A stretch of 64,000 nt of DNA, taken from the sequence record OM362897.1, one strand, 5' to 3'. The notes under the pieces were generated by a model that saw nothing but the letters and a program-made list of their open reading frames with translations, did no database searches and was not told the DNA's origin. Position numbers and translations under genes: made by a program. Every line of letters begins with the position of its first letter. Positions within the stretch are counted from its first letter, which is position 1. Positions 3,479-42,340 of the stretch are shown in pieces. This DNA comes from Escherichia phage SKA64.

Positions 3479-3808
3479 ATGGAAATTACTACAGAACAAG
3501 CCCTTATCGATGAGGGTCGTAAAATCTTAGAAAAGTATTTAGGGGAGATTCATAAAACCCCTGGCTATTTGGGTTGGAGAATTGTTGAAGCTGTAGATTT
3601 CCTTCCTCGTAACAGTAAAAACGTCGAAATGCGATCTCTTTTCTTATTAGTAAAGGTGGATGGGGATACGCCTTTTAAAGATGCCGCAGAACATATTGAA
3701 AAAGTTGAAGAGAAAGCTTATGCAGAATTTGCCGATCTTGTTTTAGAACAAGAGATTGAAGGAAAGGTGAATATTTTTATTTTCTTAGATTTTGAGGAGG
3801 ATAAGTGA
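3479..3808 (+). CDS. hypothetical protein
   Basis: ORF track; GGAGGAAGGA RBS. Confidence 0.55.
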   Translation: MEITTEQALIDEGRKILEKYLGEIHKTPGYLGWRIVEAVDFLPRNSKNVEMRSLFLLVKVDGDTPFKDAAEHIEKVEEKAYAEFADLVLEQEIEGKVNIFIFLDFEEDK

Positions 3809-4548
3809 TCATACACAGAGAAATTACTGTTAAAAGCGATCAAGATCTTTTTATAATTGGAGATCTACACGGTTGTTATAATTTGTATGAAAAAGGAAAG
3901 GCAAAGTTAGGTATCCGAGATACAGATGTGGTTGTATCTCTAGGAGATCTTACTGACCGTGGAAAGCAAAACTTTCGTTGTGTTTTAGAATTTACTCGTA
4001 AACACAATCGCTACGCTATTCGTGGCAATCATGAAGACATGATGATTAAAGGTATGCTGGAAGGAGATCGTAGCTACTACGAGTGTTGGTATCAAAATGG
4101 AGGATATACGGTCTTTGAAGAATGTGGTGAAGAAGGAGCTACAGCCTTAGCAATGATGACAGAAGATTTACCTGTTGTTCTCATTGTTAACTACAGAGGC
4201 ATGAAACTTGCGTTTATTCATGGTGGGTATCCATCTTCTTTGGAATATCTCCCTGTAACAGATATTCCAGAATACATTTCGAAGATGACAAAAACACAGG
4301 AAAACCGTTTTGCTGAAGCACTTATGTGGGACAGAGATATGGTAGACTGTGCTAAAGAGGGAATGAAACTTCCTGTTGTGATGGGTGTGGATTATGTGTT
4401 TCATGGACACTCTTATGTAAAAACACCTATTATCAATGCGAATCGTGTTTATATGGATACTGGATCTGTGTTCAATAATAACTTAACATTTGCTTATTTC
4501 GATATGGACGGTGGTCTTCAATTTTATTCAACTCTTGAGGAGGATTAA
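3805..4548 (+). CDS. PPP-family Ser/Thr protein phosphatase / calcineurin-like metallophosphoesterase
   Basis: GDLHG, GDLTDRG and GNHE motifs in canonical order; 247 aa. Confidence 0.8.
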   Translation: MIIHREITVKSDQDLFIIGDLHGCYNLYEKGKAKLGIRDTDVVVSLGDLTDRGKQNFRCVLEFTRKHNRYAIRGNHEDMMIKGMLEGDRSYYECWYQNGGYTVFEECGEEGATALAMMTEDLPVVLIVNYRGMKLAFIHGGYPSSLEYLPVTDIPEYISKMTKTQENRFAEALMWDRDMVDCAKEGMKLPVVMGVDYVFHGHSYVKTPIINANRVYMDTGSVFNNNLTFAYFDMDGGLQFYSTLEED

Positions 4549-27461: not shown

Positions 27462-27830
27462 TTATTCAATGCAAGCATTATTTGCATCTTCAATTCTGTC
27501 TTTCACCCATTGAAGACGTAACGTGTTGGTATGACACGCCAAGTTTATACACTCTGAAAGGTAATCCATGCAATCTGCATTGAACGGAAGATTGTAGTCC
27601 AGCCCTGCACATGTAAATTGTTTCCTCATTTCATATTTCAAGCGGTCCAACAAACTATCCCGCCATCTTCTATCTTCTTCTCTAGTTGTCTCACCAACAA
27701 AATCATTTACATAATCTACCAGACAACCACATAAGCCACTCGTTGTGCGATTCATTGCAGGATAGTTGGCAATCCATGCTTTATAGAAGCGAAGCAATGT
27801 TGCACTGCTCAACGGAATACTATTTGTCAT
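27462..27830 (-). CDS. paralog family A member
   Basis: FYKAWIANY...GLCGCL...PFN...LQWVKDRI. Confidence 0.55.
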   Translation of the reverse strand: MTNSIPLSSATLLRFYKAWIANYPAMNRTTSGLCGCLVDYVNDFVGETTREEDRRWRDSLLDRLKYEMRKQFTCAGLDYNLPFNADCMDYLSECINLACHTNTLRLQWVKDRIEDANNACIE

Positions 27831-28164
27831 TTTTCTCTCCTTCGTAATCTTGAATTCTATCTAGCACCCATTGTATACGATGTTTGTTTTTATGGCAAAT
27901 ATGTTTTTTATGTTCGAAGGTGTATTCTTCATAACCACCTTCATTAAACGGGAAATTGTAATCCAATCCTGCACCAATAAACTGTGATTTCATCTCCTGT
28001 TGTAGACGAGGTAACAGTTCATCAGGATATGTTCCCTCTACATACTTAATCAAACATATACACAAGCCACTCGTTGTGTGACCTTCTACCTCACCAGCAA
28101 GCCAAGCTTTGTAAAACTTCATTAGACGTAAACTACTCAACGGAACATTTTTACTCTCTTGCAT
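27820..28164 (-). CDS. paralog family A member
   Basis: FYKAWLAGE...GLCICL...FPFN...IQWVLDRI; adjacent to previous member. Confidence 0.55.
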   Translation of the reverse strand: MQESKNVPLSSLRLMKFYKAWLAGEVEGHTTSGLCICLIKYVEGTYPDELLPRLQQEMKSQFIGAGLDYNFPFNEGGYEEYTFEHKKHICHKNKHRIQWVLDRIQDYEGEKNDK

Positions 28165-28891
28165 GATAATCTCCTCTCATCGTTAGCCATCTTTCATGGC
28201 AATCATCAATCACCAACATCATACGATCAATCTTAGGGAATTACAATCGAATTATCATAGGGGATTCCTATCAATTATCCCATATATACCGATTATTTTT
28301 GACACCCCACTCTTGTATAAAAAGTAACCCAAAATATCTACGGGGAGAGATTATTTCGGGACACCCTGTTTCATGGCAATCATGGCAAGAATATCTAATA
28401 GAATCAATATCATATGGCAAAAATCATGGCGCATACGTAAGAAGTGCTTAACGCGAATTTTCGGGCCGTCAGGTCCACGCAGCGACAATTCCCAAATATC
28501 ATGAGAATGAGAATAATTATCATTCGTATTCAATGACTTATGCAAGGCTTATGCCAACGTAGCGACAAGGTGGGCCACTTGATTATAAATCACACAAACA
28601 CTTATTTATCAATGGTTTGGCAACCTCATCATATGACGGAACAATGTCAACTGATCCCGCTCATGACAAGCAGACTATTATTTATATGAGAATGATTATT
28701 ATTTAAACGTTTATTAGCATAAAAACTAAAATAAATCAAGAATTTTCTGATTTTATTTACGTTTAAGAGAAGATGCTCAACATATCGCTACGCGATAGTA
28801 TTCGCCCCCGAAAGATTAGCCTTTATTTTCTTGTATGTTTATACGCTATGTGCACACTATGCAACCTGTCGCTATTCGCTCATGTTGCTAC

Positions 28892-29167
28892 GTGCTAATA
28901 CTTCACCGTGCTAATGATCTTTGAGCGATAGCGATTATTTCATCTTGTAATTACCACAATGATTATTGTTATTGCGCTAATGTTATGATCTTGGTAATTA
29001 CATATAATGCTAATAATAAGCCAGCGCAATAAGTGTAAGCGTATTACGCTTGCAATTATTGCAAGCTACGCAGTAACAAGAAATAACCATCACCGATGGT
29101 TATGATTGTTGGGGTGTAGTTGGCTTATTATTAGCTCGCTATGTGTCCGGCATAGCGTGCTAATGAT
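28892..29167. repeat. iteron-like direct repeats (C)GTGCTAATGAT plus palindromes
   Basis: GTGCTAAT-type copies at about 28892, 28908, 28974, 29008, 29157; palindromes AAGCGTAtTACGCTT (about 29037-29051), TTGCAATtATTGCAA (29050-29064), AACCATCaccGATGGTT (29085-29101). Confidence 0.5.
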
Positions 29168-29684
29168 GACTCTGTGAATGATTCGTTTTGTAATGATTTC
29201 ATTTAGTCACTATTATGGCAATAGTTATTATTTTAATGGTTTCGTTTGTTATTGTTCGTTAGTTGGTTGTTTTGTCGTGTTATCGTTATCTTGCTTAGTA
29301 TTCATCATGGTTTGATTGTTTGTTGTTATCAATCATCTTGCTATTATTCCTTTGATTATGATTAGTTTGCTTATTGTTTTATGTTGTTTGTTGGTTAGTT
29401 GTTGCGAACTATTATCAACATTATAGTTATGCACTTATATTGCATAGATAAACATGGATAGATGATAATGGTTATCATTGCACTAGAAAGGAGGTAAAAG
29501 GGTGTTTTTGATGGTTTGTTGTTGGTTGTTGATCGATTTTAACCGCTTTAAATGGCTCTCTAACAGCCTGTTACCCTGGGAGGTATGGTTATTCATTTAA
29601 TGGTTGATTAGCTCGATACCGCGATCTATTCAGTTTTGTTCTGTGTCGGTTTTTCATAGGCGGAATCTATCAACATTATTCAGG

Positions 29685-29720
29685 CAAAAAGAAAGGGCGC
29701 TTAGTGCGCCCCTTGTTTTG
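29685..29720. terminator. bidirectional terminator
   Basis: GGGCGCttagtGCGCCC hairpin flanked by A-run and T-run; same hairpin recurs at about 30260 and 36052. Confidence 0.6.
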
Positions 29721-29727
29721 TTGTCAA

Positions 29728-30147
29728 TTATAACGCTTCATAGATTGAGTAGATCCGGTTCGCCAGGTCATTACGAAAGCGGAATTTTTCATCACGTTTA
29801 ATCATCAGATCCTTAAAACCGCATTCTTTCAAGGCTTCATTAACTTTACTGCGGCATACTTTCATATTGTCCTGCGCGTCACCAATAAACTTATTGCTAT
29901 GATGCATTGCTTTGATCTCTTCCTCTAATACCAGGGCAACTACACGGACCGGATCAAGCTGATATGCGGTAACATCCATGCGGCATTGTAAACGGCTTTT
30001 AACATCGTTTACCGGATATACTGCAACCTCTTCCCCGTCAACGTTCACGATAACCAATTTACCATCGATTTCGAAGCCTTTGGCGGCGCTACCGTGACAA
30101 AAAGCGTTATCGAAGGAGTAAGCTGGATTATTTGATTTAATGTTCAT
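29728..30147 (-). CDS. hypothetical protein
   Basis: ORF track; AAGGACAACATC RBS. Confidence 0.55.
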   Translation of the reverse strand: MNIKSNNPAYSFDNAFCHGSAAKGFEIDGKLVIVNVDGEEVAVYPVNDVKSRLQCRMDVTAYQLDPVRVVALVLEEEIKAMHHSNKFIGDAQDNMKVCRSKVNEALKECGFKDLMIKRDEKFRFRNDLANRIYSIYEAL

Positions 30148-41537: not shown

Positions 41538-41566
41538 TTGACAAGCCCAGGGATCGGGCTTATACT
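41538..41566 (+). promoter_or_regulatory. sigma70-like promoter (alternatively part of a weak terminator)
   Basis: TTGACA, 17 bp, TATACT; spacer itself is a small hairpin agccc...gggct. Confidence 0.35.
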
Positions 41567-41572
41567 GTTTTA

Positions 41573-41680
41573 CATACAGAAGAGGAAGCGCCACCCCACG
41601 GCGTAAAGGCGGGGCTAACATACCAGGGGCACTGGTTGGAAGGTTGATCGCCGGTAGGCTGGGCGCTATATATTTGTAAA
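41573..41680 (+). ncRNA. candidate structured small RNA
   Basis: GC-rich non-coding segment after promoter; closing stem AGCGCC (about 41587-41592) with GGCGCT (about 41662-41667), internal CCCC/GGGG and CCAG/CTGG stems, then AUAUAUUUG. Confidence 0.3.
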
Positions 41681-41785
41681 GAAATGTAAAGATAAAATAA
41701 TCGCTTGCTTTCCTGGGTGGATCTGTTATTCTTATTACATGGCGAGGGGACACGGGAGCGCGAGACAAACACCGCCCCTGCGCGT

Positions 41786-41903
41786 CATTCTCTAAATGAG
41801 AATGATTATCATTTACCTTATCAAATAAGAATCAATCTCATTTATAAACCTAAATGCGAATCATTATCATTTGCATTTCCATATGAGAACTCTTCTCATT
41901 CCC
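41786..41903. promoter_or_regulatory. cluster of Fur-box-like AT-rich operator motifs
   Basis: GAGAATGATTATCATTTAC (41798-41816; 15 of 19 matches to GATAATGATAATCATTATC), GCGAATCATTATCATTTGC (41856-41874), palindromes CATTCTCtaaatGAGAATG and ATGAGAActcTTCTCAT. Confidence 0.35.
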
Positions 41904-41921
41904 ATCTGCATAAATTTTTGT

Positions 41922-42098
41922 AAACTTTAAATTTTGCTTTTGTACTTTCATTTTTGTAAAAGCAAAAAAACTTTAAATACTGTGGGCGCGCAAAATTTTT
42001 AAAATTTTCCTTGATTTTTGAGTTTTGTTTTGTATCTGACATTTTAAGATAATTTTCCTAAACTTTAAATTTTGGTTTTCAACTTTCACTTTTGTAAA
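41922..42098. repeat. AT-rich 39 bp direct repeat pair
   Basis: AAACTTTAAATTTTGCTTTTGTACTTTCATTTTTGTAAA (41922-41960) vs AAACTTTAAATTTTGGTTTTCAACTTTCACTTTTGTAAA (42060-42098). Confidence 0.5.
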
Positions 42099-42261
42099 TT
42101 CTTAAAAAGTTTAAATAATTTGAGGGATTTTTGAGATAATAGGTAATGGGAATTTGAGATAACCTTTAATCTTATTGGCAGACCTTCAGGAACCCACTCA
42201 GATCGAATCCTAGTGATGCAAACTGAAAAAGACAAGGGTTTGTATAGGACAAAATAATAGG

Positions 42262-42290
42262 CTCTCTACGGTGCTGTAGGAGCCTTATTT
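42262..42290 (-). terminator. rho-independent terminator (bidirectional-capable)
   Basis: ggctctctacggtgctgtaggagcc hairpin with T/U-rich tracts on both sides; downstream of minus gene ending 42341. Confidence 0.55.
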
Positions 42291-42340
42291 CTGTGCTACA
42301 AAGTGACGCCTTTGTTCTAAAAATGAAAAAAGTTAAAATA

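Follow-up and report, generated by a model that had tools for sequence, protein, structure and literature searches.

Predicted chromosome ends and a covarying, strand-specific fold in the largest non-coding gap of Escherichia phage SKA64

Introduction

What occupies the largest non-coding gap of Escherichia phage SKA64, and which process does it serve? We analysed a stretch of 64,000 nucleotides from this phage (sequence record OM362897.1; hereafter the window, numbered from its first letter), which belongs to Phapecoctavirus, the phAPEC8-like coliphages within the Stephanstirmvirinae (~150-kb E. coli myophages). When open reading frames (ORFs) of at least 70 amino acids were counted in all six frames over the whole window, positions 28165-29727 (1,563 nt) formed the longest uncovered stretch, the runner-up being 469 nt. 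An earlier reading of the letters alone (the original prediction) had named exactly this interval as the largest gap. From its repeats, palindromes and strand-biased tract, that reading had proposed a replication origin, possibly primed by an R-loop, or a packaging or regulatory hub.

The locus and its flanks are 96-97% identical to those of phAPEC8, nieznany and about 60 other Phapecoctavirus genomes, and weaker matches were found in Justusliebigvirus (phi92-like) and in a group of Klebsiella phages. In these relatives, the region is either without annotation or contains only tiny automatic ORF calls, and no credible gene was found in any of them. Our explanation as a whole, to which we assign a probability of roughly 60%, is that the gap is the junction of the two chromosome ends and carries a strand-specific fold, most likely a non-coding RNA.

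Results

The gap contains a predicted direct terminal repeat

Segment 28449-28777 is predicted to be the 329-bp direct terminal repeat (DTR) of SKA64, placed through the records of its relatives (Table 1). The record of phage Schickermooser ends with TAACGCG..., which corresponds to window position 28449, and starts with the complement of ...AAGAGAAnnTGCT, which corresponds to position 28777. Its first and last 328 nt are identical, and its terminal repeat has been published as 328 bp (PMC6563267). The first gene of this phage (gp001) begins 613 bp into the record, and these 613 bp are equivalent to the DTR plus segment 28165-28448. Similarly, the RefSeq record of phi92 carries the annotated repeats DTR-L and DTR-R, of 343 bp each, at homologous sites. 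These are bounded by ...GGTGCT/TAACGCG and ...GTAGGCT/CAACAAA (a slash marks the cut here and below), the same two sites as in the window. For BME3, a DTR of 342 bp was found by PhageTerm (PMC12210895), and a 2025 paper gives DTR ends for all Stephanstirmvirinae. The homologous 328 or 343 bp thus stand at both record ends in Schickermooser and phi92; the window has a single copy.

Many public records start or stop inside the homologous gap. Those of Schickermooser, Mt1B1_P17, WPEC4/6, dw-ec and phi92 begin or end at window position 28449/50, while Schickermooser, phi92 and the IMG/VR contig L019, which begins at /CAAC, share the boundary between 28777 and 28778. Both boundaries carry the directly repeated motif ACGT..AAG..TGCT/YAAC, which has been kept even though the interior of the repeat has diverged to 52-66%. 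The left boundary motif is retained in all lineages, taking the form AGAGGTGCT/TAACGCGATTTTC in the Klebsiella phages.

Because the DTR was located inside the gap by homology, we regard it as secure that the gap is a terminal-repeat (concatemer) junction, in which a 613-bp left-end leader would meet 1,279 bp of non-coding right-end DNA. The left end of the virion chromosome would carry the DTR and a 284-bp leader, after which the first inward-reading gene begins. The right end would consist of the terminator of the outward-reading early operon, ~950 bp of non-coding DNA and the DTR, in this order. The gap as it appears in the record would be the two physical ends of a short-DTR chromosome, joined in a circularised or concatemer-type assembly. 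The packaging half of the original prediction is substantially right, the physical ends lying within the locus by homology, although the segment that matters here, 28449-28777, had not been singled out in it.

Two observations concern variation at the repeat boundaries. In KP13-26, FKP3, ECGD1 and muut, the right cut-site core recurs directly outside the DTR (alignment A3, columns ~1790-1900), either as GCTCAACA or as CAACAAATAG, the latter in as many as 4 copies, and a different short GC hairpin follows each extra copy. The locus is mosaic (alignment A1: ZCKP1, Schickermooser, Mt1B1_P17): in ZCKP1 the DTR is 97% identical to the window, while identity falls to 86% for the left leader and to 74% for the post-DTR segment, suggesting recombination breakpoints at or near the repeat boundaries.

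A five-helix fold lies inside the right end

The right-hand flank of the DTR contains a structured element of five helices, P1 to P5 (Table 1). Block 29000-29170 is the best-conserved part of the locus between genera, with 71-78% identity against 52-59% for the DTR. The minimum free energy of the fold is -77.1 kcal/mol on the + strand (z -8.7), while the minus strand reaches -60.1 kcal/mol, 17 kcal/mol weaker. RNAalifold predictions and pair counts were based on 17 distinct sequences from four lineages. Over the 53 pairs, 900 of 901 alignment cells are canonical (99.9%), and compensatory double changes are present in 15 pairs. None of 500 shuffles was as good, and 3' partners that were slid along the sequence pair at only 24-52%. 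In some phages (KP2025, Justusliebigvirus), P4 and the apical part of P2 have been swapped for unrelated sequences that still pair.

On the + strand, 88 cells hold G·U and none hold A·C, so selection acts on the + strand fold, antisense to all surrounding genes; around the locus, ORFs of any size are on the minus strand. By covariation, a real and + strand-specific fold is secure. The three palindromes of the original prediction were all recovered as exact and in their expected places, namely AAGCGTAtTACGCTT at 29037-29051, TTGCAATtATTGCAA at 29050-29064, which overlaps the former by 2 nt, and AACCATCaccGATGGTT at 29085-29101. Rather than operators, however, they are arms of this one covarying fold.

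The direct repeats described as iterons fared in a similar way. Five copies of the GTGCTAATGAT type are indeed present in the gap, two of them exact (28908 and 29157) and three with two mismatches (28892, 28974 and 29007), while the window as a whole has 17 matches on the + strand. For the core TGCTAAT, the density in the window predicts 0.24 occurrences in the gap, where 4 are present. The repeats are not classical iterons, however: they share only this core of 6-7 nt, their spacing is irregular (16, 66, 33 and 150 nt), and the gap contains no set of at least three regularly spaced direct repeats of ~17-22 bp. GATC, which had been placed inside the iterons, is found in one repeat and is absent from the other four, and it is not enriched in the gap (6 sites against 8.35 expected). 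Two copies touch the fold. The copy at 29007 overlaps the 5' arm of P1, and the one at 29157 starts at the last base of the 3' arm of P5, forming an arm of an extended P5. In this predicted alternative, the latter copy could pair with ATTAGC of the 3' arm of P1, so that extended P5 would compete with P1. A role for the repeats as extended -10 elements (compare TGcTAATAT of the early promoters) was ruled out, as they have neither a suitable -35 element nor a T at -7.

The GCTAAT-type and inverted repeats could alternatively mark a double-stranded pac or terminase region at the end that is packaged first. They would be bound there by the small terminase or by a host factor, and the apparent fold would be a by-product of inverted binding sites. 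The mature ends are 230 bp away, the GCTAAT core resembles the cut-site core TGCT/YAAC, and in the Klebsiella phages the 5' arm of P1 is present in 2-4 direct copies (GCTAATAATACC) and an inverted one, in an iteron-like arrangement. We nonetheless judge this very unlikely, because the compensatory changes reach past the repeat core and into four other helices, and because the hairpin swaps preserve pairing. Moreover, the 88:0 asymmetry between G·U and A·C, which neither duplex sites nor a two-armed cruciform would explain, excludes both a symmetric cruciform and simple binding sites in duplex DNA.

No match at the gathering score was found in the window with Rfam 15; the best E-value in the locus was 0.46, for unrelated families. 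Our covariance model of the fold (R1) scores 151-186 bits within the subfamily. In Vequintavirus, it gives weak full-length matches (26-29 bits, E ~1e-5) at the same position and on the same strand. These share a long closing helix of other sequence, a G-rich junction (CACGGGGGTG) and a P5-like hairpin with a UCC loop. The P1 of Vequintavirus is quite different yet self-complementary, and is also unlike between two Vequintavirus-type contigs. Within Vequintavirus alone, the sequences were too similar for covariation to be informative, and RNAalifold picked another pairing. Vequintavirus records, too, begin inside the homologous gap. The ~160-nt fold is thus strongly conserved, and absent both from Rfam and from the literature we located.

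An equivalent non-coding block of 1.5-1.9 kb was observed in Vequintavirinae (L031 (EdH4) 1-900; L016 4588-4769; L030 (Av-05) 721-2639). It adjoins the same conserved gene and terminator, records start within it, and it has similar palindromic boxes (AATGGGAATACTTCTCATT) and lineage-specific repeats (GCGTTATnnT), suggesting that the terminal architecture is older than either subfamily. Just after P5, Justusliebigvirus phages carry a tandem repeat of ~16 nt, TGTATGAAATGATTAC, in 1 to 4 copies depending on the isolate (L003 (muut) 3590-3651; L025 (arall) 1454-1487); it is annotated as a repeat_region in two records.

A C-depleted tract follows the fold

The T+G-rich, C-poor stretch that had been reported beside the repeats is real: the 180 nt at 29230-29409 contain 17 C, 37 G, 99 T and 27 A, in near agreement with the earlier counts. 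The GC skew, which is -0.2 to -0.4 in the flanking genes, turns positive in the tract (+0.33 to +0.36). The tract is 243 to 422 nt long depending on the lineage, with no more than 53-59% sequence identity between genera. Its C content stays at 5-12% throughout, with 10% in SKA64, 5-6% in Justusliebigvirus and 7-9% in the Klebsiella phages. The constraint on the tract is on composition and strand, not on sequence. Its folding is no better than that of shuffles (z +0.57), and positions 29200-29499, with 28.5% GC and no structure, have the character of an AT-rich unwinding element. The minimum of 22 C per 250 nt is not unique to the gap, as two other places in the window, at ~3688 (about 3688-3940) and ~41910, have equally few.

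No trinucleotide or periodicity of the tract was common to the lineages. Bent DNA and DnaA-trio-like arrays were rejected, as neither a 10.5-nt nor a 3-nt periodicity was shared, and so were primase sites, as the enrichment of GTT seen in Phapecoctavirus (z 4.3) and Justusliebigvirus (z 2-3) does not extend to the Klebsiella phages.

Since the tract on the minus strand is G-poor, has more C than G and is unstructured, it is a candidate Rho loading (rut) site. There it would back up the terminator and stop early read-through across the fold and the DTR into the next genome of the concatemer. The C:G ratio on that strand is ~2.2 in SKA64 and ~3 in Justusliebigvirus, the minus-strand terminator is immediately upstream of the tract, and the conservation of composition rather than sequence would fit. 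The minus-strand RNA would have ~52% A and only ~18% C, however, which is not a classical C-rich rut site, and the + strand fold would be left unexplained. We therefore think a rut site quite unlikely, although it would be compatible with the explanation given above.

The T+G-rich stretch might also encode small hydrophobic peptides on the + strand (29178-29315, 45 amino acids; 29502-29600, 32 amino acids). ORFs of 32-45 amino acids rich in F, V, L and C are present in this region, and a Shine-Dalgarno-like AAGGAGG at 29489 precedes the shorter one. However, its GTG start is lost in phiWec190 and phiWec181, the longer ORF is frameshifted in phiWec-type phages, the homologous regions of the Klebsiella phages have no ORF above 28 amino acids, and no exact period-3 signal was detected. 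We give this possibility hardly any credence.

The fold as RNA or as single-stranded DNA

In the explanation that we favour, terminase would cut concatemers at both copies of the boundary motif, and fill-in synthesis would duplicate the repeat. By analogy with T7, the left end with its inward-reading early genes would enter the cell first, and consequently the right end with the fold would be packaged first. Inward transcription through the fold and the C-poor tract, starting from the right end, would yield a non-coding RNA, and the lack of C would spare this untranslated transcript from Rho. The three Fur-box-like palindromes may act as operators for host Fur or for a phage protein. Such an inward-transcribed RNA is the most likely nature of the fold, at about even odds. 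Given the presumed first-packaged position of the fold, our best guess is that the RNA plays a role in the initiation of packaging or in the control of transcription across the junction.

Several points weigh against this explanation. The ends of SKA64 are predicted from the records of relatives, and the order in which the ends enter the cell or are packaged is a T7 analogy rather than a result. The signals for a + strand RNA are weak promoter candidates only, together with the bidirectional terminator 530 nt downstream. Upstream of P1, the search for a + strand sigma-70 promoter gave no convincing candidate, and counts of promoter-like sites equal those in shuffles for SKA64, phi92 and a Klebsiella phage. 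The U-tail of the terminator on the + strand is poor outside Phapecoctavirus, an unstructured AU-rich stretch of ~270 nt would be a good substrate for RNase E, and a literature search for a transcriptome of phAPEC8-type phages retrieved nothing relevant. As only four lineages stand behind the 17 sequences, the cell counts overstate the number of independent events. Finally, the fold is equally significant with DNA parameters (z -10.3), and since G·T wobbles are tolerated in single-stranded DNA (ssDNA), RNA and ssDNA are inseparable here.

A ssDNA signal for replication or packaging is the main rival, because in a D-loop primed by the DTR, this very fold would be exposed on the displaced + strand. 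In its most developed form, the rival is a replication start site. The 3' end of the + strand at the left terminus would invade the right-end DTR of another copy and extend rightward, displacing the resident + strand. The displaced hairpin domain (29007-29169) and the T-rich tract would form a loading zone for a primosome or helicase, comparable to the ssi/PAS hairpins next to the ColE1 origin or to recombination-dependent replication in T4, and the Fur-like palindromes would be initiator sites. This amounts to the origin of the original prediction, in D-loop rather than R-loop form. The strand that folds is the one that end-invasion by the DTR would displace, its significance as ssDNA is high, and it adjoins a strand-biased tract of 28.5% GC without structure. 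In Vequintavirus, the same place is occupied by lineage-specific repeats, which suggests that a binding protein has co-evolved with them. Opposed to this, the minus strand of the leader on the left flank has no significant fold (z 0.16), so that it offers no mirror image of the right-flank fold, the matching element that a reciprocal invasion would need. Furthermore, no gene for an initiator, helicase or primase is adjacent, no DnaA-trio-like or other periodicity and no primase-type trinucleotide is common to the lineages, and region ~41795-42160, with its four evenly spaced boxes and AT-rich repeats, is more origin-like. We regard such a replication start site as unlikely.

A replication origin of the kind first proposed is not supported, although an origin may still lie here. 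The repeats are irregular, the lineages share no periodicity, and no Rep, initiator or other recognisable domain was found in the four flanking proteins, which have no Pfam domain and match only PHROGs of unknown function. An R-loop origin is likewise unsupported, because the RNA of the tract would be U-rich (~52% U, 18% G) and no initiator gene lies nearby; the GC skew is +0.3 and the promoter candidates are weak.

Returning to the junction with its fold, we tentatively propose, at somewhat less than even odds, that fold and C-free tail are the first example of a class of nucleic-acid elements, not described before, that act in cis or in trans and lie just inside the right DTR. Such elements would function either as a Rho-proof non-coding RNA made from the chromosome end or as a strand-specific ssDNA signal for the start of replication or packaging, with Fur or a phage mimic recruited to the palindromes of the DTR. 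The proposed class would cover rV5-like and phi92-like phages, that is, the Stephanstirmvirinae and probably the Vequintavirinae, with more than 250 sequenced genomes.

Fur-box-like palindromes and a second gap

Three palindromic boxes lie in the locus, two of them within the DTR, and box 1 is conserved in all genera. The 7-1-7 motif of the Fur box, TGATAATnATTATCA, is matched with one mismatch at 28508, one at 29463 and two at 28687. In the window it has 7 matches against 0.81 expected, and all good ones are in non-coding DNA. The palindrome AATGAGAATnATTCTCATT, with at most 4 mismatches, likewise occurs 7 times against 0.73 expected, at 28506, 28685 and 29461 and four times at 41795-41900. 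Compared with the Fur box (GATAATGATAATCATTATC as 19-mer), the boxes of the locus have 1-2 mismatches to the 7-1-7 form and agree with up to 16 of the 19 positions, but the phage consensus AATGAGAATnATTCTCATT has G, not T, at position 4 of the heptamer. The boxes are candidate sites for host Fur; a phage protein would be equally possible.

The four remaining palindromes are in a second gap of ~0.8 kb (41540-42340), exactly 29 bp apart (41795, 41824, 41853 and 41882). Beyond them comes a stretch that is AT-rich, poor in C and contains AACTTTAAAT repeats. A consensus promoter on the + strand, TTGACA-17-TATACT, lies at 41538. The first ~350 nt of this gap match 347 phage records, including Klebsiella, Salmonella and Cronobacter phages, and overlap a possible small ORF on the minus strand; structure at 41568-41800 is not significant (z -0.14). 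Judged by its arrangement of boxes and repeats, this second gap looks more like an origin with iterons and an unwinding element than 28165-29727 does.

Other features of the locus

The coordinates of the features in the gap are listed in Table 1.

Table 1. Features of the non-coding gap at 28165-29727, in window coordinates.
Feature	Positions	Strand	Basis or remark
Left-end unique leader	28165-28448	-	Between the DTR and the first left-arm gene (27820-28164, minus strand)
Left DTR boundary motif, ACGTAAGAAGTGCT/TAACGCG	28435-28455	+	Predicted cut between 28448 and 28449, from record ends
Direct terminal repeat, 329 bp (predicted)	28449-28777		Homology to record ends of relatives; at both virion ends, collapsed to one copy here
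Palindromic box 1, AATGAGAATAATTATCATT, Fur-box-like, in DTR	28506-28524		1 mismatch to 7-1-7 TGATAATnATTATCA; 16/19 to 19-bp Fur consensus
Palindromic box 2, TATGAGAATGATTATTATT, in DTR	28685-28703		Palindrome and 7-1-7 match
Right DTR boundary motif, ACGTTTAAGAGAAGATGCT/CAACATA	28759-28784	+	Direct repeat of left core AAG..TGCT/YAAC
Variable post-DTR segment	28778-29006	+	Least conserved part of locus, 48-53% between genera, many indels
Five-helix structured element, ~160 nt	29007-29169	+	Folding energy, covariation
Helix P1, 14 bp, closes the domain	29009-29022/29122-29135	+	RNAalifold
Helix P2, AAGCGTAtTACGCTT and TTGCAATtATTGCAA joined as one interrupted hairpin	29026-29041/29047-29062	+	RNAalifold
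Helix P3	29064-29071/29114-29121	+	RNAalifold
Helix P4, equal to AACCATCaccGATGGTT	29083-29091/29095-29103	+	RNAalifold
Helix P5	29137-29144/29150-29157	+	RNAalifold
C-depleted unstructured tract, T+G-rich in SKA64	29170-29440	+	Composition across lineages
Promoter-like TTGCAT-18-GATAAT (hypothetical)	29441-29479	+	Hexamer positions kept in three genera, spacer varies; -35 matches 3/6
Palindromic box 3	29461-29479		Overlaps promoter-like site, covers -10-like element 29465-29470
Conserved segment	29608-29691	+	Just upstream (+ sense) of terminator; also in Avunavirus Av-05 and other distant phages
Bidirectional intrinsic terminator	29692-29714		Stem GGGCGC with GCGCCC, T-runs on both strands; ends minus-strand gene 29728-30147

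The leader contains CATGGCAA repeats, a 24-nt tandem repeat and a promoter-like TTGCCA-18-AATAAT, and is presumed to be the promoter region of the left-arm gene array. Three of the four window copies of CATGGCAA are in the gap (28195, 28372 and 28381), as the original prediction had it. In phiWec-type Phapecoctavirus phages, the leader is 66-74% identical to that of SKA64; leader and DTR together show 65-75% identity, and 29000-29727 shows 90-93%. The post-DTR segment has a short GC hairpin right after the cut site (~28785-28800), a GCAAC...GTTGC hairpin (28861-28888) and three GCTAAT-type repeats (28892, 28908 and 28974). By-eye comparison of the alignments showed that its hairpins are swapped for other GC hairpins in relatives.

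The promoter-like site at 29441 stays below the scan threshold because of its poor -35 element. The terminator is annotated in phAPEC8, Schickermooser and Paula, and its minus-strand tail, AAAAAGAAAG, is nearly invariant. In a search for conserved folds in 29480-29720, only this terminator was consistent, and none was found in 29608-29691. The 109 nt at 29608-29716, which end in the terminator, are 76-81% identical in Av-05 and two other distant phages, in which the rest of the gap is unrelated.

Beyond the terminator, nine copies (eight exact) of the motif GTAGGGCGGCAATGGTGCCGC lie between 31136 and 41124, all on the minus strand, and none lie on the other side of the gap. In phAPEC8, this motif is the 5'-UTR hairpin that follows the early promoters TTGACA-17-TAATAT. 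The copies appear to mark an early region of ~10 kb with multiple promoters, transcribed toward the right genome end.

A search for tRNA and tmRNA genes gave none. A host origin was rejected, as no copy was found in 5,426 E. coli genomes. Records labelled as phages of Campylobacter, Pseudomonas (PsgM04F) and Acinetobacter (ABPW7) match the coliphage locus at ~78-95% identity; these host labels may be wrong, or the samples contaminated.

Discussion

phAPEC8-, phi92- and rV5-like phages are among the coliphages most often isolated and used in therapy. The placement of the DTR and its cut-site motif tells annotators where the chromosome truly starts, and shows that two ends meet in the largest gap. 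The covarying fold is a concrete target that can be mutated to study the start of packaging, replication or early transcription, and a constraint on composition alone, excluding C, is an unusual signature that can be searched for elsewhere. If the boxes do bind Fur, the ends of the phage chromosome would be wired to the iron status of the host.

The closest counterparts are the DTRs of phi92 (343 bp), Schickermooser (328 bp) and BME3 (342 bp), which have homologous sequence, the same boundary motifs, the same neighbouring genes and a similar length (PMC6563267, PMC12210895, PMC12695924), and from which nothing essential differs. The DTR of this phage group is already published. The descriptions that we located stop at the length of the repeat; the boundary motif, the fold, the C-free tract and the boxes are described neither in that literature nor in Rfam.

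More distant parallels come from replication origins and from the ends of other phages. ColE1 has an RNA II origin with flanking ssi/PAS hairpins, and T4 has the R-loop origins oriF and oriG. As in these systems, a strand-specific structured nucleic acid in SKA64 stands beside an easily unwound, strand-biased tract. In contrast to them, SKA64 has no pair of G-run and C-run that could form the hybrid, its RNA would be U-rich rather than G-rich, and promoter and replication are conjecture.

The non-coding region of T5 known as the injection stop signal is reportedly part of a 10-kb repeat and associated with the transfer of DNA in two steps. Like the gap of SKA64, it is the largest non-coding block of its genome, is full of repeats and palindromes and is tied to a terminal repeat. 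The two regions are not homologous, however, and covariation evidence is absent for the T5 comparison.

The terminal region of T7 is said to comprise a DTR of 160 bp with arrays of short repeats (SRL and SRR) just inside each copy, early promoters beside the left repeat and packaging signals at the right end. SKA64 resembles it in having a short DTR in non-coding DNA, adjoining arrays of short repeats, inward-reading early genes at one end and co-directional transcription across the junction. There is no sequence similarity between the two, and SKA64 has neither a phage RNA polymerase nor a CJ pause site. Unlike T7, SKA64 has a cut-site motif common to both boundaries of its repeat, and a right flank that combines a covarying multi-helix fold with a tract constrained in composition.

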